64,000 nt of DNA from Myxococcales bacterium (GCA_037442205.1 JBBIQS010000017.1:21964-85963), one strand, 5' to 3'; positions 1,204 through 52,018 are shown, numbered from the stretch's first letter. Notes: generated from the letters alone by a model not told the origin. Numbers and translations are program-made.

Positions 1204-1314
1204 ATCGCGGGCGGCGGCGGAAAGTTCTCCATTTGACGCCGGGGCAGGGGCGCCGCTAGCTTGCGCGCCTTCTTGGCGAGGGGCCAACCCGTGGTCGGAG
1301 TGCGAGGAGGCAGC

Positions 1315-2672: not shown

Positions 2673-2684
2673 GTCGGGCTTTTT

Positions 2685-2758
2685 CGGGGCGTAGCGCAGC
2701 CTGGTAGCGCACCTGCCTTGGGCGCAGGGGGTCGGAGGTTCAAATCCTCTCGTCCCGA
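2685..2758 (+). tRNA. tRNA-Pro (anticodon TGG)
   Basis: Hand-folded cloverleaf. Acceptor CGGGGCG/CGTCCCG, anticodon stem CCTGC/GCAGG with loop CTTGGGC, T-loop TTCAAAT. No CCA is encoded. Confidence 0.9.
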
Positions 2759-2766
2759 TAGAGCGG

Positions 2767-2802
2767 GGCCGCGGCAGTCGGAAGGCTGCCGCGGCCTTGT
2801 TG
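2767..2802 (+). terminator. Perfect 11-bp GC hairpin between tRNA-Pro and tRNA-Arg (terminator or processing signal)
   Basis: GGCCGCGGCAG-tcggaagg-CTGCCGCGGCC followed by TTGTTG. The next tRNA starts only 5 nt later, so a processing or attenuation role is equally possible. Confidence 0.3.
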
Positions 2803-2806
2803 ACCG

Positions 2807-2880
2807 GCGCCAGTAGCTCACCGGGATAGAGCAACGGCCTTCTAAGCCGTAGGTAGGGGGTTCGAGTCCCTCCTGGCGCG
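2807..2880 (+). tRNA. tRNA-Arg (anticodon TCT)
   Basis: Acceptor GCGCCAG/CTGGCGC, anticodon loop CTTCTAA, T-arm GGGGG-TTCGAGT-CCCTC. No CCA is encoded. Confidence 0.9.
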
Positions 2881-3002
2881 CTCGATGTCGTTTTTTCTCT
2901 CGCGCCAGGGCCCGGCTCTGGTAATAAGGAGGCGCCGCGGACGGTCGGCGCGCCACGGCGCCGAAAAGCAGTCGAGGACGCGGGACGCAGCGAAGGCAGC
3001 AC

Positions 3003-3076
3003 GGTGGGTGTAGCTCAACTGGCAGAGCACAGGACTGTGGCTCCTGGGGTTGTGGGTTCGAGCCCCTCCATCCACC
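3003..3076 (+). tRNA. tRNA-His (anticodon GTG, with G-1)
   Basis: An extra 5' G pairs with C73, the His identity feature. Anticodon stem CAGGA/TCCTG with loop CTGTGGC, T-loop TTCGAGC. The hand fold has one T:T mismatch in the T-stem. Confidence 0.85.
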
Positions 3077-3139
3077 CTCTCTTCTCTCGGATCGCCAAGA
3101 CAGCACCGGCGGTCCCACGGCGTGCGATTCCGCAGCCGA

Positions 3140-3213
3140 GCGCCTGTAGCTCAACTGGATAGAGCGTTGGGCTTCGAACCCAAAGGCTGGAGGATCGTGC
3201 CCTCCCAGGCGCG
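3140..3213 (+). tRNA. tRNA-Arg (anticodon TCG) with atypical T-loop
   Basis: Acceptor GCGCCTG/CAGGCGC, D-arm GCTC-AACTGGATA-GAGC, anticodon stem TTGGG/CCCAA with loop CTTCGAA. The T-arm GGAGG-ATCGTGC-CCTCC reads A54/T58 rather than T54/A58. Confidence 0.7.
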
Positions 3214-3304
3214 CTGTATCTTGCCGCGGTGACTGGCGTTCTCGGGCGCCGCCTGGTCCTCGCTCTCATGGTGCGGCCAGGGCAGTAGGGCTAACCTCTC
3301 CTCG

Positions 3305-41663: not shown

Positions 41664-42008
41664 ATGAAGGCCTTCGTCAAACGCTTGGTGGAGCGGCTGT
41701 CGGACCCGGACGGCCCGCTCTCGCGCAATCGGCACTTCGACGCCCTCGACAACCCCGAGGGGCGCCAGGCGCTGCGCGTGTCGCGACGGCTGCGTGCGCT
41801 GCGCCTGGAGATCGAGGAGCAGGTGCGCTCAGGTGAGCCGATCCGGGTGGAGATGGTGCGCGAGAACGGCGCGGTGGTGCGGGTGCTGCTGGAGATCGTG
41901 CGCCTCAAGGCGAGGCGCACCGCGTTGCTCTCCGCCGACGAGCTGGAGCTGCTGATGCAGAGCGAGATCGTGCGCCGGGCGCTCGAGGGGCCGCTCAAGG
42001 CGGCCTGA
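41664..42008 (+). CDS. Hypothetical protein (114 aa, helical, Arg-rich)
   Basis: In-frame 3' part of track ORF 41556..42008, with ATG at 41664. Plausible composition but no recognised motif and a weak SD. Confidence 0.45.
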   Translation: MKAFVKRLVERLSDPDGPLSRNRHFDALDNPEGRQALRVSRRLRALRLEIEEQVRSGEPIRVEMVRENGAVVRVLLEIVRLKARRTALLSADELELLMQSEIVRRALEGPLKAA

Positions 42009-42719
42009 TCACCGCTGCGGGGAAGCGAGCGAGCGAAGCATCCAGAACAGCGCGCGCAGCAGCGGGTCCTTGGGCAGGTAGAGGTCGGGAATCGGCTCGC
42101 CGGCGCGCTCAGTCCAGGGCTCGTAGGAAACCGAAGAGCCGGACTTGATCCACAGGTGGATCCCATCCCGCGCCTCGAGCCGCAGCTGTTGGCCGTCGGA
42201 GGTCACCAGTTGGAGTCTGGGCGCCTCGACCTTGGCCTGGCCGATGACCAGCTGAGAGGCGACGACTTCGATGGTGATCGGGGACCCCCGCGCATCGGGA
42301 GAGGGGTGCTCGCGCGTCAGGTGCAGCGACAGCCGGCCGCCCAATGGCGTGTCCCCAACGGCGCAACCCTTCCCGAAGTCGACCTCGATCGAGGGCGAGC
42401 CAGCCGACTCCACGACTCGAGCGTCGGGGCACGAATGGAAGGCCAGGCGCAACGAGCGGCTCAGGCGAGCGCGCACCTCGGGCAGCGTCCCGAGGGGATC
42501 GAACAGCGGCTCGTCGAGCTTGAGGTTGACCTGGATCGCCGTGCCGCCGGGGTTGGACCACTCGCCCGAGGGCGACGGCCGCCCAACCGGCGGCCGCGCG
42601 GGGGCGGTCGCCGGCCTCAACGGAGTCTGCGGCTCGGCGGCGAGCGGCGCGGGCGAGTGGGCGCAGGCGGAGGGCGCCCACGCCACTGCCAGCAGCATCC
42701 TCGCCGCGCTGCGGATCAC
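42009..42719 (-). CDS. Hypothetical secreted protein (236 aa)
   Basis: Track ORF with a GTG start overlapping the upstream stop (GTGA). Signal peptide MIRSAARMLLAVAWAPSACA, a Pro-rich linker, then a beta-rich region. Confidence 0.6.
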   Translation of the reverse strand: MIRSAARMLLAVAWAPSACAHSPAPLAAEPQTPLRPATAPARPPVGRPSPSGEWSNPGGTAIQVNLKLDEPLFDPLGTLPEVRARLSRSLRLAFHSCPDARVVESAGSPSIEVDFGKGCAVGDTPLGGRLSLHLTREHPSPDARGSPITIEVVASQLVIGQAKVEAPRLQLVTSDGQQLRLEARDGIHLWIKSGSSVSYEPWTERAGEPIPDLYLPKDPLLRALFWMLRSLASPQR

Positions 42720-43555
42720 GCCTTTGCTTCGGGGGCGTTGGGCGCCGGCGCGGAGGGCTTGCCGGCCTCCTCGGACTTGGCGGCCTCTGCCGCCTTCGGC
42801 TCCTCGGCGGTGGGCCGCAGCGACTTCATCTCCCTCTCCACCAGGACCAGTTTCTTGGCCAGGTCGTCGCGCTCCAGGGTCAGGGCGCTGTGCTTGGCCT
42901 CGAGGGCGCGGAACTTGTCCTTGGCCACGTCCAGCTCGCCCTTCTGCACGATGAACACCCGCCGGTCGGTCTCGGCCCGGCCCTTGAGGCGCTTGACCTC
43001 CTCGTCCAGCGAGCGGAGCTGCTCCCGGGCCTTGCCCAGCTGCTTCTCGGCCGAGTCCTGGCGGGCCTTCTCCTCGGCGCTCGGCTCGCGCGGCGCCTTC
43101 TCGGCGGCGGGCTCGGCCTTGGCCTCGGCCGGCTTCTCCTCGCGGACCGGGCGGCGCGACTTGAGCGCCTCCACCTCGGCGGTCGCTTTCTTGAGCGAGC
43201 CCTTGGCGACCTCGGCCTCCTCGCGGGCCACCGCCAGCTTGTGCTCCATCTCGCGCTCGATCTCGGCGCGGGCGGTCTCGAGGTCGCTCTTGAGCTTGGA
43301 GGCCTCCTTCTCCTCGTAGCGGCGCTTCTTGACGTCGCGCAGCTTCTCCTTGAGCTCCTCGGCCTCCTTGCGCTTGGCCTCGAGCCCCTCGGTCGACTTC
43401 TTGGCCTCGTCCCTGAGCCCGCTCAGCTGCTGCTTGAGCGCCTCCAGCTCGGAGAGCGCCTTGTTCGAGGCCGCCCGGGCCCCGCCGACCTGCAGGCCCA
43501 TCAGGATTGCGGCGATCGCCGCGAACGCGAACAGAATCCCCAGCACCACTTCCAT
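42716..43555 (-). CDS. N-terminally membrane-anchored coiled-coil protein (279 aa, Glu/Lys/Ala-rich)
   Basis: Inside track ORF 42716..43720, with ATG at 43555. TM MEVVLGILFAFAAIAAILMGL followed by about 230 aa of heptad-like charged sequence. Confidence 0.65.
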   Translation of the reverse strand: MEVVLGILFAFAAIAAILMGLQVGGARAASNKALSELEALKQQLSGLRDEAKKSTEGLEAKRKEAEELKEKLRDVKKRRYEEKEASKLKSDLETARAEIEREMEHKLAVAREEAEVAKGSLKKATAEVEALKSRRPVREEKPAEAKAEPAAEKAPREPSAEEKARQDSAEKQLGKAREQLRSLDEEVKRLKGRAETDRRVFIVQKGELDVAKDKFRALEAKHSALTLERDDLAKKLVLVEREMKSLRPTAEEPKAAEAAKSEEAGKPSAPAPNAPEAKA

Positions 43556-43640
43556 GACCGCTCCTTGCCCTGCGTGGACGGCGCGCCGCCCCCGATGCCG
43601 GGCTCGGGCCCGGCCTGACACGCCGCGAAAAAGGGGCCTT

Positions 43641-43668
43641 AACCTAGCCCGGCCCCCACCGCCGTCAA
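43641..43668 (-). promoter_or_regulatory. Sigma-70-like promoter candidate TTGACG-N16-TAGGTT for the coiled-coil/secreted-protein pair
   Basis: Minus-strand reading, located between the terminator at 43683..43713 and ATG 43555. Confidence 0.35.
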
Positions 43669-43682
43669 GGGCCAAAGGGCGC

Positions 43683-43713
43683 GAAATGAAACGGGCGGCC
43701 GCCGGGCCGCCCG
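43683..43713 (-). terminator. Rho-independent terminator after the Kelch lipoprotein gene
   Basis: Minus strand: 9-bp all-GC stem CGGGCGGCC-cggc-GGCCGCCCG followed by TTTCATTTC, 32 nt after the stop at 43745. Confidence 0.7.
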
Positions 43714-43744
43714 CTCGCAACTCAGACCGATGGCTGGCCGAAGG

Positions 43745-45436
43745 CTACTCGGCCGGGGTGGGCATGAAGATCTCCATCGTGTCCAGGGTGGAGAAGCGGC
43801 TGCCGGCGTCCATGTCCACCCCGCCGATGACCAGCACGCTGCCGTCGTTCAGGAGGGTGCAGCTGTGGAAGACCCGGCGGTCGGCCATGTCCGCGCCCTT
43901 GGTGGCCCGCACCGCGGCGCCGCCGTCGGACAGCACCGCGGTGCTCGACACCGAGGCCACCGGCGAGCCGCCGCGCCCGCCGATCACCAGGGCCCGGCCG
44001 TCCTTCAGGGTGACCGCGCAGCTCTGGCCGACGGCCAAAGGCAGCTCGTCGCCGCCCTGCTCGACTTGCGGGCCGGTGGGAGGGCCCTGGACGGTGATCA
44101 CGTCGATCTTGCTGCTGGGGGTCGCCGGGAAGAGGTTGAAGGGGTTGGAGGAGGAGAAATCGGAGAAGCCGCCGGCCAGCGCCGCCTTGCCCTTGCCGCC
44201 GGAGTAGAAGCCGACCTCGGCCGCCGCCGAGTATTGCCGCAGCCGGGTCAGGTCCAGCGGGGCGCCCGGGAACTGCAGGGTGTTGTTGAGGCTGTTGACC
44301 TGGGTTCCGTCGTACGAGAAGAACTGCGCGGCGTTGGGGGTGAGCGCCGGCGCCTTGTCGGTGGCGTTCTGGACCGCCGCCCCTGCCAGGAGCATCACGA
44401 ACTGGCCGCTGTTGGCGGAGACGGCGGCGTGCCCGCTGCGCGCGATGAACCTGGTGCCGGTGGTGGTGCTCAGGCTGTGCGCGCTGCTGTCGGTGCTGTC
44501 GTACCACTCGGCGCTCTCAACGAACCAGGGCTTGCTGGGGCTGCCGCTCCAGAAGATGCCTCCGAAGATGATCGCCATCCCCTTGCGCTCCAGGGTGGCG
44601 GTGTGGCGCGAGCGGGGCTGGCGCGAGGTCGAGACCATGAAGATCCCGCTTCCGCCGCTCCCGGTGGGGTCGAAGAGCAGGGTGACCTGCTGGGTCTTCA
44701 TCGCCGGCGCGCTGCTGGCCGGCTTGTCGGCGTACTCGCCGCCCACCACCAGCACCTGGTCGGTGGCCGGCAGGTAGGTGGCGCTGTGGAAGGCGCGCGG
44801 GGTGGTGGCGCCTCCGTTGACCCCGTCCTTGGCCATGGTCAGGTGGTCGGGCAGCTCGACCAGGCCGGTATTGAGGTCGAGGAGCTCGGCGGTGGCGTGG
44901 TAGGTCCAGTTGGTCTGGGTCTGGCTGGCGCCGGTGAACCCGCCGGTGATCAGCACCCGGCCATCGCCGATCTGCGTGGCGGTGTGCCCGGCGCGGGCGA
45001 CGTTGAGGCGGGTGGCCTTGGCCGGCTCGTCGGCGGTCACCACCGGGGAGAAGGACTCGACCGGGCGCAGGAAGACGTTGATCGCCAGCGGATCGGGATT
45101 GCTGGCCAGGTCCTCGGGAACGGTGAATTGCCCGGAGACGCCGTTGCTGACGATGCTCCCGCCCGGCGGGGCGCCGTTGAAACCGGTGACCTGCAGCCGC
45201 ACCGGCACGCCAGCGGGGATCGAGGTCAGGGTGTCCTTGCTGTTGCCCACCGCCGACACCTTCTCGGACAGCGTCTTGCCGTCGGCGTCGAGGGCGCGGA
45301 AGCGCAGGTGGGACACGTCCTTCATCGGGTTGGTGCTGCCGGGGCGGAGCACCTGCACCGCGATCCGCGCCTCGCGGTTGCAGGCGGCCAGGGCCAGCAC
45401 GGCCAACAGGACAGGGGTGCGAACAAGAGCGCGCAT
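43745..45436 (-). CDS. Kelch-repeat lipoprotein (563 aa)
   Basis: Inside track ORF 43745..45559, with ATG at 45436. Lipobox LALAAC. Kelch-like blades GHTATQIGDGRVLITGG, FHSATYLPATDQVLVVGG, RHTATLERKGMAIIFGG, FHSCTLLNDGSVLVIGG. Confidence 0.75.
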   Translation of the reverse strand: MRALVRTPVLLAVLALAACNREARIAVQVLRPGSTNPMKDVSHLRFRALDADGKTLSEKVSAVGNSKDTLTSIPAGVPVRLQVTGFNGAPPGGSIVSNGVSGQFTVPEDLASNPDPLAINVFLRPVESFSPVVTADEPAKATRLNVARAGHTATQIGDGRVLITGGFTGASQTQTNWTYHATAELLDLNTGLVELPDHLTMAKDGVNGGATTPRAFHSATYLPATDQVLVVGGEYADKPASSAPAMKTQQVTLLFDPTGSGGSGIFMVSTSRQPRSRHTATLERKGMAIIFGGIFWSGSPSKPWFVESAEWYDSTDSSAHSLSTTTGTRFIARSGHAAVSANSGQFVMLLAGAAVQNATDKAPALTPNAAQFFSYDGTQVNSLNNTLQFPGAPLDLTRLRQYSAAAEVGFYSGGKGKAALAGGFSDFSSSNPFNLFPATPSSKIDVITVQGPPTGPQVEQGGDELPLAVGQSCAVTLKDGRALVIGGRGGSPVASVSSTAVLSDGGAAVRATKGADMADRRVFHSCTLLNDGSVLVIGGVDMDAGSRFSTLDTMEIFMPTPAE

Positions 45437-45450
45437 GGAGTCCAGGTCTC

Positions 45451-47127
45451 TCACCAGTTGATGGTGGCGGTGCCGGTCACCGGCCGGGTCATGTAGGAGT
45501 AGCCGAAGAAGCCGCCGGCCCCCACCGCGCCGACGGCGACGATGCCCAGCGCGATCCACAGGGCGGTGTTGCTGCTGCCCTTCTTGAGCGCCGGAAGCTC
45601 GCTCTCGTTGGGGCCCGTCGGCTCGCCGTTGAGGTCGCCGGGCTGGGCGATGACGTTGCGGACCTCGGAGCGCGGGGCGGTCTCGACCACCCGGGGCGCG
45701 TCGCCGCCGCGGCGGGACACCACCCGTTCCGAGCCACTGGCCGGAGCGCGGGTCTCACCGTCGGAAGAGCCGCCGTAGCTGGAGCTGGACGACGAGCTGG
45801 AGCTGGACGAGCGGGAGCTGCCCGAGTTGGAGGAGACCGGGGCGCGGCCGCCGCCGCCCGCCGGGCGCCGCCCGCCGGACTCGGAGCTGGAGCCGGCACT
45901 GACCGAGGCGATGGCCGAGGACGACGAGCCGGGGCGGGGCAGGGCGTCGCGGGCGACCTTGGTCGGGATCCTCTCCTCGTCGCCGAAGATGTCGACTCGG
46001 TTGGCGACGTCGGCGCCCACCTTGTAGACCTCGATGCCGGCGCCGAGCATCTCCTGGTCGAAGACCACCCGCTGCAGCAGGCACAGCTTGCGGTTGGAGG
46101 TGTTGAGCAGGTGGCTGCTGACGACGATGGTGTCGCCCTCCTTGTGGACGCCGCCCAAGACCACGAAGTCGGCCTTGGCGGAGTCGGCCAGGGACAGGGC
46201 CTTGGAGACCGCCACCTCGTCGAGCGCGTTGCGTGACAGCAGCGCGGCCAGCTCGCCGCCCGGGCCGCCGCCGCCGCCCAAGTCCGGCGAGACCTTGGCT
46301 GTGTCGTTCGGCCGCACCTCGATCCGGTCCGCCCAGACATCGCCCGAGGCGGGGACCACCGCGAGGAAGTGGCGGCCCTTGATGACGTCGTTGATCTGCA
46401 GCGGGGATTTGCCCAGCTCGCGGCCATCGAGGAAGACGGTGGCCCCGGAGGCGCCGGTCACCTGGATCGAGCCGCGGGGAGCGCCGCGCAGCTTGCCGCC
46501 CAGGTTGTCGAAGATCCGCAGAAACACCGGGGGAAAACGCTCGGCGTCCAGCTTGCGGTCGGGTTCGAGGCGGATCACCTGGGACAGCATCCGCTCGCCG
46601 TCCGAGTCCTGGCTGAGCCGGAAGTAGGCGACTGCGAGGCTGAGGTAGGCGCTGGTCAGCTCCCCGAAGTCGACGTAGGCGTGCTGGCCCTCGAAGAGGG
46701 CGATGGCCTTCTCCAGCTCGTCGGCGGCCGGCTTGAACTTGAGCTTCTTGATCAGCTCGTCGGCCTTGTTGGCGTGCTCCTTGGCCTCGGCGAGCAGGCC
46801 GGAATCGCGGCGGGGGGTCGGGTTGATCTGCTTGGTGACCACCGGGGCCGCTTCGGCCTTGAGCTGGACCAGCTGCAACTGCTCGGAGCTCTTGAGCTCG
46901 TTGCTCAGCAGGTCGGCGGTCTTCTCGCCCACGCTCGCCGGCAGGCTGTCGTAGATGGGCGCGTAGGGGAGGACCAGCACCTTGGGCAGGTCGCCGGCGA
47001 AGGCGGGGGGAGTGAGCAGGCCGCCGGCGCTGGTGAGGACCAGCGCCACGATGGTCGTGGAGGCGACCGCACGGCCGGCGCGCTCTCTCAGCGCGGCCAG
47101 CGCCGCCATCCCTCGGCGTGAACTCAT
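45451..47127 (-). CDS. PEGA-domain envelope protein with poly-Ser tract and C-terminal TM helix (558 aa)
   Basis: Inside track ORF 45451..47169, with ATG 47127 preceded by GAAGGAG. PEGA-like GSIQVTGASGATVFLDGRELGKSPLQINDVIKGRHFLAVV. S-rich stretch SSRSSSSSSSSSSS. TM ALWIALGIVAVGAVGAGGFFGY. Confidence 0.7.
   Translation of the reverse strand: MSSRRGMAALAALRERAGRAVASTTIVALVLTSAGGLLTPPAFAGDLPKVLVLPYAPIYDSLPASVGEKTADLLSNELKSSEQLQLVQLKAEAAPVVTKQINPTPRRDSGLLAEAKEHANKADELIKKLKFKPAADELEKAIALFEGQHAYVDFGELTSAYLSLAVAYFRLSQDSDGERMLSQVIRLEPDRKLDAERFPPVFLRIFDNLGGKLRGAPRGSIQVTGASGATVFLDGRELGKSPLQINDVIKGRHFLAVVPASGDVWADRIEVRPNDTAKVSPDLGGGGGPGGELAALLSRNALDEVAVSKALSLADSAKADFVVLGGVHKEGDTIVVSSHLLNTSNRKLCLLQRVVFDQEMLGAGIEVYKVGADVANRVDIFGDEERIPTKVARDALPRPGSSSSAIASVSAGSSSESGGRRPAGGGGRAPVSSNSGSSRSSSSSSSSSSSYGGSSDGETRAPASGSERVVSRRGGDAPRVVETAPRSEVRNVIAQPGDLNGEPTGPNESELPALKKGSSNTALWIALGIVAVGAVGAGGFFGYSYMTRPVTGTATINW
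45777..45812 (-). repeat. 18-bp tandem duplication encoding the poly-Ser tract
   Basis: agctggagctggacgacg / agctggagctggacgagc on the plus strand. On the minus strand these are Ser codons. Confidence 0.7.
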
Positions 47128-47175
47128 GAAAATGCTCCTTCTTCGCCCGGTTGGACCCTTGGGGGCCAACCGAAA

Positions 47176-47204
47176 AAGCTACCTTCCGCCAGCAGGCAGG
47201 TCAA
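47176..47204 (-). promoter_or_regulatory. Sigma-70-like promoter TTGACC-N17-TAGCTT for the PEGA-Kelch operon
   Basis: Minus-strand reading, followed by a leader hairpin GGTTGGCCCCCAAGGGTCCAACC and the SD GAAGGAG. Confidence 0.45.
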
Positions 47205-47317: not shown

Positions 47318-47956
47318 ATGACCCGTCTCTTGTGCGCGTCCCTGCTGTGCGCCGCGCTGGCAACGCTCGGCGCGCCGGCCACCTGCCGCGCCCAGGAGGG
47401 CCTGCAGCTGACCGCGCCTCCGCTGCTGGAGAACACCGAGCTCTCGCGCACGATGGAGCCCAGGCTGCTCCACGAGCAGCTGCTGTTCTCGGGAGTGACC
47501 GCGCTGGTGGCCGTGCCGGCGGCGATGGGGCTGGGCTCGCTGTGGGGCCGGATCCCCTCCAACCTGATCGCCGCGGCGCTGCCGGCGGTGCTGTTCTACC
47601 TGGTCGTCCCGCCGCTGGCGACGGCATGGGTGGCGCGCCTCATCGGCTCGGAGAGCCAGAACCTCTCTCCCGGGCTGTTCCTGCCGGCGCTGGCTGGTTT
47701 TGGCGTCCACCTGGCGGCGACGGCGGTGGGAGTGCTGCTCAACGTCTCCACCAGCCAGCCTTGGCTGGCGCTGCTGCTGGCGGTGGTGGACGCGGTGGCG
47801 ATGACCCCGGCCACGGTCTTCGCCATGAACGCCCTCGCCGCTCCGCGCGCCCCCGCGCCGATGCCCGCGGCGCCCGCGGTCGAGACTCCGGCCCCTGCCG
47901 GCTCGCGCGAGCTTCCCGACGCCAGGCCGCTCTTCGCCCTCTCCATCCCCTTCTGA
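47318..47956 (+). CDS. Hypothetical integral membrane protein (212 aa)
   Basis: In-frame part of track ORF 46982..47956, with ATG at 47318. Signal peptide MTRLLCASLLCAALATLGAPATCRA plus about 4 TM helices and a Pro/Ala-rich tail. Confidence 0.6.
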   Translation: MTRLLCASLLCAALATLGAPATCRAQEGLQLTAPPLLENTELSRTMEPRLLHEQLLFSGVTALVAVPAAMGLGSLWGRIPSNLIAAALPAVLFYLVVPPLATAWVARLIGSESQNLSPGLFLPALAGFGVHLAATAVGVLLNVSTSQPWLALLLAVVDAVAMTPATVFAMNALAAPRAPAPMPAAPAVETPAPAGSRELPDARPLFALSIPF

Positions 47957-47974
47957 CGATCGCGAGCGAACCCC

Positions 47975-49126
47975 ATGAGAAGTCTCCTCGCCTCCCTCGC
48001 GCTGCTCCTCGCCTGGTCGCCGGCGAGTGCGCCGGCCCAGACCTGCCCGGCCTCGAGCGGCTTTCCCGGCGCCGCCTGGACCGATGCCAGCGCCGCCATC
48101 GCCGCAGCGCGGACCGCCGAGATCAAGGCCCTCGAAGACTACATGTTCACCCTCACCGGCACCGATGCGGAGCGAAAGGGCATCCGCACCGACTCGGTGG
48201 TGATCATCCAGGGTGGGAAGCTGGTGTACGAGCGCTACGCCCGCGGCTTCAACCCCGACCGCCGCCACATCGCCTGGTCGGTCACCAAGAGCTACACCGG
48301 CACGCTGATCGGCGTGGCGGCGCAGCGCGGCCTGCTCAAGCTCGAGGACTCGATCTGCAAGTACGTCCCCGAGGCTCCCTCCGACAACTGCTCGATCCGC
48401 GTGGTGGACCTGCTCGAGTTCGCCAGCGGCATCGACTGGAAGGAGATCTACGAGAACCAGAGCAATCAGGAGTCGAGCGTGCTGGCCATGCTCTACGGCC
48501 AGGGGCACACCGACATGGCCGGCTTCGTGGCCGGGCATCACCGCCGCGACGAGCCGGGCACCAGCTACCAGTACTCCACCGGCGAGACGACCCTGCTGGC
48601 GGCGGTGGCGGCAGGGGCGCTGGAGCCGACGCTGGGCGCGGAGTGGCCCTGGCCGGCGCTGTTCGATCCGATCGGGATGCAGAACCCGGTCTTCGAGCGC
48701 GACGCCCGCGGCCACTACGTCGGCGGGGCCTTCCTCTACCTGACCGCGCGCGACCTGGCGCGCCTGGGCTGGCTGATGCGCAACGACGGCTGCTGGAGCG
48801 ACCAGCGCCTGCTGCCGCAGGGCTGGGTCGCCGATTCGACCAAGGTCAGCGAGCCCATCAAGAAGAAGACCCTCGAGCGCGCGGACGGCGACGTGCAGGG
48901 CCGCCAGTGGTGGATCAACACCCCGGTCCCGGAGCAGAACCAGGGCGTGCCCTGGCCCGATCTGCCGGCCGACACCTTCATGGCCCAGGGGCATTGGGGC
49001 CAGTTCTGCGCCGTCATCCCGTCGCTGGACATGGTGGTGGTGCGCATGGGCGACGACCGCGACTCCACCGCCCTGGACCTCAACAAATTCGTCAAGCTGG
49101 CGATCGAAGTGGGGAAGAAGCCATGA
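47975..49126 (+). CDS. Serine hydrolase of the beta-lactamase/transpeptidase-like (class C / esterase) family
   Basis: Track ORF of 383 aa with a signal peptide and the SxxK motif AWSVTKSYTG. Overall length is typical of beta-lactamase-family hydrolases. Confidence 0.75.
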   Translation: MRSLLASLALLLAWSPASAPAQTCPASSGFPGAAWTDASAAIAAARTAEIKALEDYMFTLTGTDAERKGIRTDSVVIIQGGKLVYERYARGFNPDRRHIAWSVTKSYTGTLIGVAAQRGLLKLEDSICKYVPEAPSDNCSIRVVDLLEFASGIDWKEIYENQSNQESSVLAMLYGQGHTDMAGFVAGHHRRDEPGTSYQYSTGETTLLAAVAAGALEPTLGAEWPWPALFDPIGMQNPVFERDARGHYVGGAFLYLTARDLARLGWLMRNDGCWSDQRLLPQGWVADSTKVSEPIKKKTLERADGDVQGRQWWINTPVPEQNQGVPWPDLPADTFMAQGHWGQFCAVIPSLDMVVVRMGDDRDSTALDLNKFVKLAIEVGKKP

Positions 49127-49443
49127 AGACCGCCAAGTTCTCCCTCGCGGCAGCGGCGCTGCTGCTGGCACTGGCGCTGGGCTGTGGCAGCTCGCGTCCG
49201 GGCTATCCCTACTCTTGGAACGACCTGCGGCTGATCAGCTCCTACACCGCCAAGACCGCCTGCTCCTGCCTGTTCGTCATGGAGTTCGACGAGGCCGCTT
49301 GCCGGGCCTACGCCAAGCAGGAGCCGCCCATCGCCACCTGGACGGTCGACCGCAACGCGAAGACGGTGGACGCCTCGACCGGCCTGATGTGGGGCGCGCG
49401 CGCCCGCTACATGGGCCCCAAGTTCGGCTGCACACTGGAGTAG
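49123..49443 (+). CDS. Small Cys-containing lipoprotein (106 aa)
   Basis: In-frame tail of track ORF 47332..49443. The ATG at 49123 overlaps the upstream stop (ATGA). Lipobox LALALGC and six further Cys residues. Confidence 0.6.
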   Translation: MKTAKFSLAAAALLLALALGCGSSRPGYPYSWNDLRLISSYTAKTACSCLFVMEFDEAACRAYAKQEPPIATWTVDRNAKTVDASTGLMWGARARYMGPKFGCTLE

Positions 49444-49447
49444 CCGG

Positions 49448-50233
49448 TCAGCGGTGGCGCAGGGTGAGGAAGGCCACCTCGCGAGGGGCGGCCACCCGCA
49501 GCGGCAGCGCCGAGCCCAGCCCGCGGCTGACGTAGAGGTGGGTCTCGCCGACGGCGAAGAAGCCGGACAGGTACTTGACCCCGATCCGCCGGGCGATCCC
49601 TCGGGTGACCCTGGGCAAGAGGATCTGTCCGCCGTGGGTGTGGCCGGCCAGCGCCAGCGCCACTCCACGTCCGGGCAGCAGGTCGGCGGCATTGGGGTCG
49701 TGGGTGAGCACCAGCCGGGTTCCGTCCAGCGGCAGTCCGGAGAAGGCCGCCTGGGCATCGGAGTTTCCAGTGCGGTGATCGTCGATGCCGATCAGGTGCA
49801 GGTCCTGGTCGCGCAGGCGGACGGTGGCGAACTCGTTGCGCAGCACCGCGATCCCCGCCCGGCGCAAGCCGGCCTCGATGGCCCGCGGATCGGTCCAGTG
49901 ATCGTGGTTGCCGAGGGTGGCGAAGGCCGGCGGCTGCAGGCGCGACAGCGCCAACTCGAGCCGGGGAATTGCCCTCGCCGAGGTGCACACGTAGTCGCCG
50001 GTGAGCAGCACCAGATCCGGCCGCCGAGCGTTGATCAGGTCGAGGATCCGCCACAGCCGCCTGGGCCGCAGCGCGGCCGAGACGTGCAAGTCGGTGAGGT
50101 GGGCCACCACCACGCCGTCGTGCTCGGGCTGGATGAGCGGCGAGCGGACCTCGTATTCCTCGAGATTCACCCGGGCCAGCCGGCGCGGCCTTGGGGAGAG
50201 AGGGCGCCGGTCCTCGGTCAACGGCAGCTTCAT
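49448..50233 (-). CDS. Calcineurin-like metallophosphoesterase (YaeI-like)
   Basis: Inside track ORF 49448..50569, with ATG at 50233. Motifs HLTDLHVS, LTGDYV, GNHDHW, THDP, GHTHGGQ. Confidence 0.85.
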   Translation of the reverse strand: MKLPLTEDRRPLSPRPRRLARVNLEEYEVRSPLIQPEHDGVVVAHLTDLHVSAALRPRRLWRILDLINARRPDLVLLTGDYVCTSARAIPRLELALSRLQPPAFATLGNHDHWTDPRAIEAGLRRAGIAVLRNEFATVRLRDQDLHLIGIDDHRTGNSDAQAAFSGLPLDGTRLVLTHDPNAADLLPGRGVALALAGHTHGGQILLPRVTRGIARRIGVKYLSGFFAVGETHLYVSRGLGSALPLRVAAPREVAFLTLRHR

Positions 50234-51115: not shown

Positions 51116-52018
51116 CTAGTGGCCGCCGAGCATCTGGGCCTCGACTCGGTTCCGACCGGCCTGCTTGGCTTTGTAGAGGTACTTGTCGGCGGCGGCGATC
51201 AGGGCGCTGCCGTCGGCGAACGAGCCGTCGACCAGCGTGGCGAGCCCGAGGGAGATGGTGACCTTCATCTCCTGGCCGTTGAAGCTGAACTGAGTGCTCT
51301 CGATGAGCCGGCGCACCCGCTCGGCGAGGATGAACGCCTTGTCCTCGGGGGCCTCCCGCAGCAGCAGCACGAACTCCTCGCCGCCGTAGCGGGCGAAGAG
51401 GTCCTCGGCGCGGATGGTGTCGGACACCTTCTGCGCCAGCCGCGCCAGCACGTAGTCGCCGGCAGGGTGGCCGTGGGTGTCGTTGATCTTCTTGAAGTGA
51501 TCGACGTCCATCATGATGGCGCTAAGCGCCACCCGGTGCCGCAGGCAGTAGGCGAACTCCTTCTGCAGCGAGTCGAGGAAGAACTTCTTGTTGTAGACCC
51601 GGGTCAGCGCATCGCGGGTGGCCGAGTCGTAGAGGTTCTTCTGCAGCGCCTCGTCGAAGGCGTCCTGATAGCTGAACTTGAGGATGGTCGCCGAGCCGAT
51701 CTGGATCTTGTCGCCATCCTTGAGCGCCTGGATCTCGATCTTCTCGCCGTTGGAGAAGGTGCCGTTGGTCGAGTTCAGGTCCAGCAGCTGGATGGTGCCG
51801 TCGGCGCGCACCGAGATCTTGGCGTGCTTTCGACTGACCCCCTCGTCGTCGAGCATGATGTCGCACTCGGCCGCCCGGCCGATGACCATCTCGTTGCGGT
51901 CGAGCTTGAACATCTTGCCGACGCTGGTCTTGCCCGAGACGACGATGAGGTAGGCGTTGACGCGCTTGGCCTGCGACAAGAGCTCGGAGACGGTATGGAC
52001 TATTGTTTTGTCTTCCAA
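51116..52018 (-). CDS. FHA-domain diguanylate cyclase (FHA + GGDEF)
   Basis: Track ORF of 300 aa with a TTG start and GAGGA 6 nt upstream. FHA core IGRAAECDIMLDDEGVSRKHAKI...STNGTFSNG. GGDEF domain with active site RYGGEEF and an I-site RAED five residues upstream. Confidence 0.9.
   Translation of the reverse strand: MEDKTIVHTVSELLSQAKRVNAYLIVVSGKTSVGKMFKLDRNEMVIGRAAECDIMLDDEGVSRKHAKISVRADGTIQLLDLNSTNGTFSNGEKIEIQALKDGDKIQIGSATILKFSYQDAFDEALQKNLYDSATRDALTRVYNKKFFLDSLQKEFAYCLRHRVALSAIMMDVDHFKKINDTHGHPAGDYVLARLAQKVSDTIRAEDLFARYGGEEFVLLLREAPEDKAFILAERVRRLIESTQFSFNGQEMKVTISLGLATLVDGSFADGSALIAAADKYLYKAKQAGRNRVEAQMLGGH

Follow-up and report, generated by a model that had tools for sequence, protein, structure and literature searches.

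Do four neighbouring genes for putative envelope proteins in a stretch of Myxococcales DNA form one system, and if they do not, which of them belong together and what might they do? The stretch, referred to here as the window, comprises 64,000 nt from a Myxococcales bacterium with about 70% G+C. A first-pass annotation had described four minus-strand open reading frames (ORFs), here called g1 to g4, as an uncharacterised envelope cluster, and all four were found at exactly the coordinates it had given. Judging from the third-position G+C values (0.95 for g1, 0.968 for g3, 0.95-0.97 over g1-g3 and 0.886 for g4), all four ORFs look coding, with g4 less typical than its neighbours. Comparison with related loci indicates that the conserved core consists of g1 (45451-47127, minus strand), encoding a 558-aa PEGA protein with a C-terminal transmembrane helix, and g2 (43745-45436, minus strand), encoding a 563-aa Kelch-propeller lipoprotein. 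The same comparison identifies g3 and a convergent gene, here called 'dn', as frequent associates and g4 as an insertion in this genome. No more than two or three of the genes reported are thus part of a putative device, and the correct unit of study is g1-g2 plus a sensor kinase or g3, not four genes. In many myxobacteria that are not in culture, g1 and g2 occur side by side and mostly have a sensor kinase gene as their neighbour, which points to a so far undescribed device for bridging or monitoring the envelope.

Linkage and architecture of g1 and g2

We compared the loci around close g1 relatives, loci obtained from a metagenome scan, and five individually looked-up deep subfamilies. g1 and g2 were adjacent in every locus with enough DNA. 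These are about 25 loci, which represent seven or more deep g1 subfamilies with g1 identities as low as about 27%. The spacing between the two genes ranged from -7 (overlap) to +45 nt over all loci, and other neighbours differed between subfamilies. In the window, g2 starts 14 nt past the g1 stop codon, as described before. In all loci around close g1 relatives, g1, g2 and g3 were present with identical arrangement and orientation, and a homolog of g4 was found in none of them. The metagenome scan, performed with a subfamily alignment only about 27% identical to the g1 of the window, gave 16 more loci, and a g2-like Kelch lipoprotein gene followed g1 in every one of these having downstream DNA (in one as a tandem pair). 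The five further deep subfamilies all possessed the same pair. With respect to synteny in relatives, g1 and g2 therefore turned out to be linked throughout and not scattered, whereas the unit of four genes did not hold, g4 being without homologs and g3 inverted or missing in several lineages. These results indicate that g1 and g2 very probably act together. A paralogous copy was not found within the window, and the literature on PEGA, Kelch and Myxococcus yielded no functional study of such a pair. The earlier statement that the set cannot be assigned to any described machinery was borne out by searches of Pfam, NCBIfam, PADLOC, PDB sequences and the literature.

An exhaustive hidden Markov model (HMM) search with a g1 profile retrieved at least 278 representatives (50%-identity clusters) at E <= 1e-30, and most of the matches listed align along most of the profile. 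A word-indexed search with g1 yielded 17 close relatives, all from metagenome-assembled genomes (MAGs) or metagenomes labelled Myxococcales; a word-indexed profile search from a diverse g1 alignment returned the same close relatives and nothing further. The exact sequence of the g1 of the window is not on record. Among 28 cluster look-ups no cultured carrier was encountered, the sources being MAGs or metagenomes in all cases. Since all members seen have this origin, genetics are not yet possible.

Residues 227-280 of g1 belong to the Pfam family PEGA (PF08308; 28.2 bits against a cut-off of 20.8, E = 1.8e-6). Pfam and hydropathy together confirmed the PEGA domain, the N-terminal signal and the C-terminal transmembrane helix reported earlier. 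The signal peptide (residues 1-46) is long, with cleavage between AFA and G, and the AxA site is conserved in the family. A single hydrophobic helix, rich in Gly and Ala, is located near the C-terminus (about 519-543, from hydropathy). A run of 10 Ser had been noted as well; the run exists, its length is 11 residues (440-450), and it sits in a low-complexity insertion of about 35 residues found in this genome alone in the family alignment.

In the AlphaFold2 model of g1, the predicted local distance difference test (pLDDT) is about 90 over residues 45-400 and drops below 50 over residues 414-518. It contains an alpha/beta domain resembling TolB-N and LpoB, split into two segments (about 47-90 and 288-395), with TPR-like helices (109-214) and a PEGA beta-sandwich (about 217-280, pLDDT about 90) inserted. 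This head is followed by a stalk of about 120 residues (400-519), which is rich in Ser, Gly, Pro and Ala and predicted to be disordered. Foldseek against the PDB gave no whole-chain match at E <= 0.001 and domain-level matches only, namely to TPR proteins, the TolB N-terminal domain (4pwz, prob 0.97), the LpoB C-domain (4q6l, prob 0.99) and a carboxypeptidase regulatory domain. PDB sequence searches returned nothing usable for g1, g2, g3, g4 or 'dn'.

The most conserved short motif of the g1 family is its C-terminal tail (45454-45501, minus strand; YSYMTRPVTGTATINW in the protein of the window), which comprises the 12-16 residues after the helix and has the family consensus [KR]-P-[VT]-[TS]-[GA]-T-[VA]-T-[AIV]-x-W at the very C-terminus. 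An aromatic WxW, the Gly/Ala-rich helix and this Trp-ended tail follow each other in that order, defining an unannotated conserved C-terminal module (WxW, helix, PxTGTxTxxW). The tail motif was detected in 117 of the 133 g1-family representatives that possess a C-terminal hydrophobic segment. It was present on every g1 ortholog of the fetched loci and on no other ORF there (about 400 kb of related loci). g1 would accordingly be a type I membrane protein with a cleaved signal peptide and a short cytoplasmic tail, a topology deduced from the sequence. The conservation of the tail argues for a cytoplasmic partner.

A metagenome protein of different build, P0168 (580 aa), combines a CsgG/LpoB-like N-terminal strand motif and several PEGA domains with a C-terminal WWxW-helix-...TGxGxIxW, indicating that the C-terminal module travels with PEGA proteins beyond the g1 architecture. 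In L006/L012 (9631-11152), a locus from a long-read MAG, g1 is frameshifted and the deposited protein P0017 is truncated to 384 aa, which is probably an assembly error.

The second protein of the pair, g2, is a member of the Kelch propeller family (Kelch_4, 80.3 bits against a cut-off of 21.6, E = 9.6e-23, four stretches), and it also exceeded the cut-off of the Attractin/LZTR1 propeller profile (52.7 bits against 50). It carries the lipobox LAAC at residues 17-20, with Cys20 as the predicted lipid-bearing residue, in agreement with the Kelch-repeat lipoprotein of the first-pass annotation. The AlphaFold2 model (pLDDT 83.5, predicted template modelling score 0.86) consists of an immunoglobulin (Ig)-like N-terminal beta-sandwich (about 22-122) and a Kelch propeller of about seven blades (about 145-557). 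The folded part begins two residues past the lipid Cys, and the chain ends right after the last blade. Foldseek matched the propellers of NS1-BP, KLHDC2 and galactose oxidase with E values of 1e-12 to 1e-14 (NS1-BP Kelch domain, E = 6.5e-14). A homolog search with g2 found two orthologs, the remainder being generic Kelch proteins.

The lipid Cys is kept in all 17 orthologs aligned, and the residue at position +2 is never Lys. Lys at +2 marks inner-membrane lipoproteins in M. xanthus (PMC3222651), and g2 is therefore predicted to reside in the outer membrane. Apart from the lipid Cys, the residues invariant across the 17 orthologs are the generic RxxH and GG positions of Kelch repeats and two Cys in the last two blades. 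No catalytic family scored above its cut-off for g2 in Pfam or NCBIfam, and the profile libraries placed none of the four products above the cut-off of an enzyme family, in agreement with the earlier remark that the set lacks catalytic motifs.

Invariant as F-x-P-x-P across the 17 orthologs, the C-terminal tail of g2 has the form F-x-P-x-P-x-[DE] (F-x-P-x-P-x-E in the protein of the window). We considered that it might bind the TPR of g1 as EEVD peptides bind TPR clamps, but the family-conserved TPR residues are structural. Two variations of g2 were seen in relatives. The orthologs of L002, L006, L009 and L011 contain a Cys-rich insertion of about 35-45 residues in the N-terminal beta-sandwich, adding 5-6 Cys (e.g. 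CGTANE...CQVENGYECGSDSDCGFG), which the g2 of the window lacks. In L022 (7431-10712), g1 is followed by two tandem paralogous Kelch lipoprotein genes instead of one.

Neighbours and promoters of the pair

In all of the about 20 loci outside the subfamily of the window, a homologous HAMP sensor kinase gene is divergently adjacent to g1, the two genes sharing an intergenic region of 70-280 nt. This is the strongest association of g1-g2, and it was overlooked in the first-pass annotation, as was 'dn'. In the kinase (about 534 aa), a periplasmic sensor domain of about 170 aa is enclosed by two transmembrane segments and followed by HAMP, HisKA and HATPase domains. AtoS and ZraS come closest to the kinase core, with scores below their cut-offs. 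No response regulator is consistently adjacent in the kinase-linked loci. Genes that recur beyond the kinase encode an M16 peptidase (in some subfamilies only), a TPR protein (about 440 aa) and a protein with a PATAN (DUF4388) domain.

The subfamily of the window instead keeps a metallophosphoesterase and an FHA-GGDEF protein upstream of g1-g2. The FHA-GGDEF diguanylate cyclase gene (51122-52015, minus strand) was present in every locus of this subfamily, with 66-78% identity, and absent from the kinase-linked subfamilies. Its product may be a signalling neighbour standing in for the kinase in the subfamily of the window.

A further neighbour is g3 (42716-43555, minus strand, 279 aa), homologs of which were located within 1-2 kb of g1-g2 in all seven loci of the window's subfamily and in four other lineages, three times on the opposite strand and once on the same strand. 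The membrane anchor and coiled coil noted earlier are both there: a transmembrane segment (residues 3-22) precedes the coiled coil, and the C-terminus is of low complexity. The ortholog alignment resolves two conserved coiled-coil blocks, joined by a variable linker of Pro, Ala, Glu and Lys, with the conserved motifs KRKEAEELKEKLKDVKKRRHEEKE and GRAETDRRVF(I/L)VQKGEL..KDKFRALE. The orthologs open with an acidic N-terminus, Met-Glu or Met-Asp, followed by the transmembrane segment and then by Arg or Lys, for which the positive-inside rule predicts an N-out, C-in topology with a cytoplasmic coiled coil. This renders it doubtful that all four products are envelope proteins, as had been assumed, and a coiled coil so placed would be unable to span the periplasm. 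The layout can be likened to that of EzrA or ZipA, in which a coiled coil is tethered to the membrane on the cytoplasmic side. g3 matches no curated family in Pfam or NCBIfam, and PADLOC detected no defence system, its only match being a coiled-coil artefact in g3 (E = 0.004).

Putative promoters precede both g1 and g3. A sigma-70-like box, TTGACC-N17-TAGCTT (P1; 47176-47204, minus strand), is located upstream of g1 and was invariant as TTGACC-N17-TAGC[CT]T, with the exact 17-nt spacer, in seven orthologous loci, where the intergenic DNA around it shows about 55% identity. It is followed by a Shine-Dalgarno sequence, AAGGAG (47135-47140, minus strand), 7 nt before the ATG, conserved as (A)AGGAG in the ortholog alignment. 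The box upstream of g3, TTGACG-N16-TAGGTT (P2; 43641-43668, minus strand), was kept as TTGAC[GC]-N16-TAGGTT in seven of eight orthologous g2-g3 intergenic regions. Both boxes had been proposed in the first-pass annotation and are conserved in relatives, though a generic sigma-70 scan called no site; P1 matches the generic consensus at 8 of 12 positions. The kinase-linked loci likewise carry TTGACx-N17-TAnnnT upstream of g1. Within the window the box type occurs only three times, at g1, g3 and rph. Because the same type precedes rph, it is most likely the housekeeping promoter form of this lineage, P1 and P2 most likely being of the housekeeping sigma-70 type, and a special regulon defined by the shared box could be ruled out. 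g3 would constitute a separate transcription unit since it has its own conserved promoter, and the predicted transcription units are two, g1-g2 and g3(-g4).

The box at rph (TTGACG-N18-TAGCTT, 1233-1262, plus strand) is followed by rph, encoding RNase PH, and an rdgB-like gene (genes at 1315-2630), downstream of which four tRNA genes are located (Pro-TGG, Arg-TCT, His-GTG and Arg-TCG; 2684-3214, plus strand). In one kinase-linked subfamily (L015, L016, L022 and L024) an A/T-rich motif, GTTTTATCAG, occurs directly before the g1 start, in the variants TTGTTTTATCAG (L015, L016 and L024) and CGGTTTTATCAG (L022). This motif could be an element of the 5'-untranslated region or an operator.

Two further claims concerned the transcript. 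The terminator described as clear after g2 corresponds to a terminator-like hairpin with a 10-bp GC stem and a CGGC loop, followed by UUUCAUUU (43684-43714, minus strand). Hairpin and tract are indeed present, and the structure is modest (-33 kcal/mol for a 65-nt piece, z = -2.2), with an interrupted U tract. It was not clearly conserved in orthologs and not called by a generic scanner, which reported another hairpin at 43634-43650. The structured leader suggested before g1 could not be upheld, as the region, when folded from its predicted transcription start, was no better than shuffled sequence. It also has no match in Rfam.

A putative trans-envelope bridge and its alternatives

The gene structures, domain folds, linkage and promoters described above can be accommodated in a model whose localisation, g1-g2 contact and signalling role we infer. 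g1 and g2 would be produced from one housekeeping-type promoter, probably with coupled translation. The head of g1, composed of the TolB-N/LpoB-like, TPR and PEGA parts, would lie in the periplasm, carried by its disordered stalk (about 120 residues) above the anchor in the inner membrane. g2 would be a non-enzymatic lipoprotein whose Ig-like domain and Kelch propeller are held close to the predicted outer membrane, and the g1 head would cross the periplasm to contact it. The state of this bridge might then be passed through the g1 helix and tail to cytoplasmic partners, which would be the divergently encoded HAMP sensor kinase in most lineages and g3, perhaps also 'dn', in the lineage of the window. 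We consider the chances that g1 and g2 form a bridge from the inner to the outer membrane to be evenly balanced. The complete proposal, in which the pair bridges or measures the gap between both membranes and signals to cytoplasmic partners, is mostly inferred and put forward tentatively, with somewhat less than even confidence.

Several points weigh against this proposal. This kinase gene is not found within 64 kb in the subfamily of the window, and for this locus the signalling link is one by analogy because its subfamily lacks the adjacent kinase. The predicted outer-membrane location of g2 relies on a sorting rule established in a cultured but distant relative, for g3 the topology was predicted from the positive-inside rule only, and g1 resembles the TolB and LpoB folds weakly (Foldseek E values of 8e-3 to 5e-2). 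Finally, the adjacency of the kinase could reflect only that the kinase regulates the operon; yet a conserved housekeeping-type promoter lies before g1 in all lineages.

If g1-g2 were the output of such regulation, they might be a ligand-binding pair of the surface or envelope, engaged in adhesion or in binding of polymers or prey components, and would form no complex with the kinase. The divergent arrangement with its shared intergenic region of 70-280 nt, the description of PEGA domains in cell-surface proteins (PMC2447325) and the frequent binding of ligands or peptides by Kelch propellers are consistent with this explanation. We regard it as unlikely, because the g1 genes of the kinase-linked loci are preceded by the sigma-70-like box and no shared operator-like motif was seen there, no response regulator is consistently adjacent, and the pair persists unchanged where the kinase is absent. 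This persistence without an adjacent kinase would also suit a purely structural tether or scaffold, in which g1-g2, with or without g3, join inner membrane, peptidoglycan and outer membrane or organise a zone of the envelope, with no signalling involved. The parts (TPR, PEGA, Kelch and coiled coil) are without exception modules for interaction and contain no enzymatic motif, the promoters are of the housekeeping type, and the layout of stalk and anchor resembles reach-across adaptors. However, such a tether leaves the invariant divergent sensor kinase of the other subfamilies and the highly conserved cytoplasmic tail of g1 unexplained, and the g3 coiled coil, predicted to be cytoplasmic, could not take part in spanning the periplasm. 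Such a purely structural role appears somewhat unlikely to us. The periplasm-spanning scaffold conceived in the first-pass annotation was supported insofar as an envelope-spanning role is the most natural reading for g1 and g2, and doubtful as regards a coiled coil that spans the periplasm.

The conserved tail could alternatively serve, together with the helix, as a sorting or processing signal, g1 being cleaved or moved to the outer membrane or surface and meeting g2 there. The tail is hydrophobic at positions 1, 3, 5 and 9 from its aromatic C-terminus, which is the pattern of the C-terminal signal of outer-membrane proteins. The same WxW-helix-tail module is found on the differently built multi-PEGA protein P0168, and Myxococcota are known to use C-terminal sorting tags (PMC11980579). 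In the known tags, however, the motif stands before the helix, and in g1 it stands after it, on the cytoplasmic side; g1 has neither a Cys motif nor an Arg-rich tail and is not a MYXO-CTERM protein. Furthermore, no protease or sortase gene is consistently linked (the M16 peptidase occurs in some subfamilies only), and no further protein encoded in about 400 kb of related loci was seen to carry the tail, so that we consider a sorting signal very unlikely. Hardly any weight can be given to g2 as an enzyme, i.e. a radical copper oxidase of the galactose-oxidase/GlxA type or a NanM-like mutarotase, with g1 as its membrane partner. Galactose oxidases and GlxA were among the top Foldseek matches, and faint matches to the Glyoxal_oxid_N, GlxA and YjhT profiles were obtained. 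The scores remained far below the cut-offs for both enzyme groups (Glyoxal_oxid_N, 12.8 against 37.5 bits; GlxA, 25.7 against 800 for an ortholog; NanM/YjhT, 22-24 against 256 and 416 for an ortholog, the protein of the window being unmatched). In addition, g2 lacks the third domain that gives a copper ligand in galactose oxidase, and its invariant residues are generic structural positions of Kelch repeats shared with non-enzymatic relatives.

The nearest analogies to the proposed bridge are functional, not homologous. In the 'three-component system' MtrB-LpqB of Actinobacteria, the accessory lipoprotein LpqB interacts with the sensor kinase MtrB and lowers its activity (PMC5845573). As in that system, whose lipoprotein acts on the extracytoplasmic side of the kinase, a kinase gene is genetically linked to a lipoprotein gene, the HAMP kinase standing by the lipoprotein gene in most g1 subfamilies. 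Unlike in MtrB-LpqB, a second partner exists, the stalked g1, the hosts are diderm, so that the lipoprotein is probably located in the outer membrane, and the kinase gene is divergent, not in the same operon, and is absent from the window. A sequence relationship was not found, and no assignment to the LpqB or MtrB families was obtained. The stress-sensing pairs RcsF-IgaA and NlpE-CpxA of Enterobacteria feed into a phosphorelay, and in each of them a lipoprotein of the outer membrane communicates through the periplasm with a protein of the inner membrane. Their folds and families are unrelated to those of g1 and g2, and the long disordered stalk is here on the inner-membrane partner, not on the lipoprotein.

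Single parts of g1 resemble other envelope proteins. LpoB and LpoA, which activate penicillin-binding proteins (PBP1b in the case of LpoB), also use a globular head on a long disordered linker to cross the periplasm, LpoA having a TPR too, and the match of the g1 alpha/beta domain to the LpoB C-domain (52 columns, E 5e-2) is one at fold level and not significant. In contrast to LpoB, which is held in the outer membrane by an N-terminal lipid, g1 has a C-terminal helix in the inner membrane; it has no lipobox and no match to an LpoB profile in Pfam or NCBIfam, and no gene for a penicillin-binding protein is linked. The Tol-Pal system (TolB, TolA, CpoB) likewise includes a TolB-N domain, a beta-propeller, a TPR element and an anchored, charged helical protein, but the parts are distributed over different polypeptides, the propeller is of the Kelch and not the PD40 type, and the helical region of g3, unlike that of TolA, is predicted to be cytoplasmic. 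The locus is not a Tol-Pal locus, since the fold match to TolB-N is weak (E = 8e-3), there is no TolB profile match, and no tol or pal genes, tolQ and tolR included, lie nearby. MYXO-CTERM proteins, with an invariant Cys motif before the transmembrane helix and an Arg-rich tail (PMC11980579), share with g1 a C-terminal transmembrane helix and a conserved short motif on secreted proteins of Myxococcota. g1 differs in having no Cys before the helix, in carrying P-x-T-G-T-x-T-x-x-W after it and in its Thr-rich tail ending in Trp, and NCBIfam gave no match to this family.

The module is real, conserved and unassigned, and would belong in kind to the envelope accessory modules coupled to signalling. 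In a more specific form of the bridge proposal, kinase, g1 and g2 would together be an undescribed three-component envelope sensor of Myxococcota, in which an outer-membrane Kelch lipoprotein is engaged by a stalked inner-membrane protein. Inter-membrane distance, peptidoglycan state or outer-membrane contact would be relayed via the g1 helix and tail to the HAMP kinase or, in this genome, to a g3 scaffold. This version is speculative and we rate it as improbable; the sensor would then be the bacterial counterpart of an adhesion receptor and its cytoskeletal adaptor. If the pair indeed acts as a trans-envelope bridge or sensor, it would represent a new and widespread way for diderms to couple the outer membrane to inner-membrane and cytoplasmic signalling, built of Kelch, PEGA, TPR and TolB-N-like parts, in a phylum whose surface motility, predation and development are well known.

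Further genes of the locus

The fourth ORF, g4 (42009-42719, minus strand), comprises 236 aa, or 229 aa if translation starts from the ATG at 42698. Coupling to g3 via GTGA had been proposed for it; the GTG start does overlap the g3 stop codon, and gene callers favour the ATG 21 nt downstream. Its description as a secreted protein is supported in part, the hydrophobic start being short and the signal peptide weak. No homolog of g4 was detected in any of about 30 related loci, even at E = 5, and neither Pfam, NCBIfam, PADLOC nor the PDB gave a match. g4 lies between g3 and 'dn', and in relatives where these two adjoin, the gap measures about 90-370 nt (e.g. 93 nt in L009 and 264 nt in L008). 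It is probably a recent, lineage-specific add-on outside the conserved module.

The convergent 'dn' gene (41664-42008, plus strand) encodes a cytoplasmic protein of 114 aa with the motif LSRNRHF..F..P.GR.AL. Homologs were located near g1-g2, at differing positions, in the window's subfamily and in the kinase-linked loci L015, L025, L027, L028, L032 and L034. A known family (Pfam, NCBIfam, PADLOC) or solved structure (PDB sequence search) was not found for 'dn'. Beside it, several relatives encode a cytoplasmic protein of about 485 aa (L007, 10021-11478; L008, 12192-13649; L011, 8751-10208; L002, about 17441), which has no Pfam or NCBIfam match and was not found in the window.

Between g1 and the metallophosphoesterase gene (49448-50233, minus strand), the window contains three plus-strand genes (47318-49443), encoding a 212-aa membrane protein, a 383-aa protein of the beta-lactamase family and a small lipoprotein of 106 aa. 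This block looks like a lineage-specific insertion, since the metallophosphoesterase gene is directly upstream of g1 in L007 and L008.

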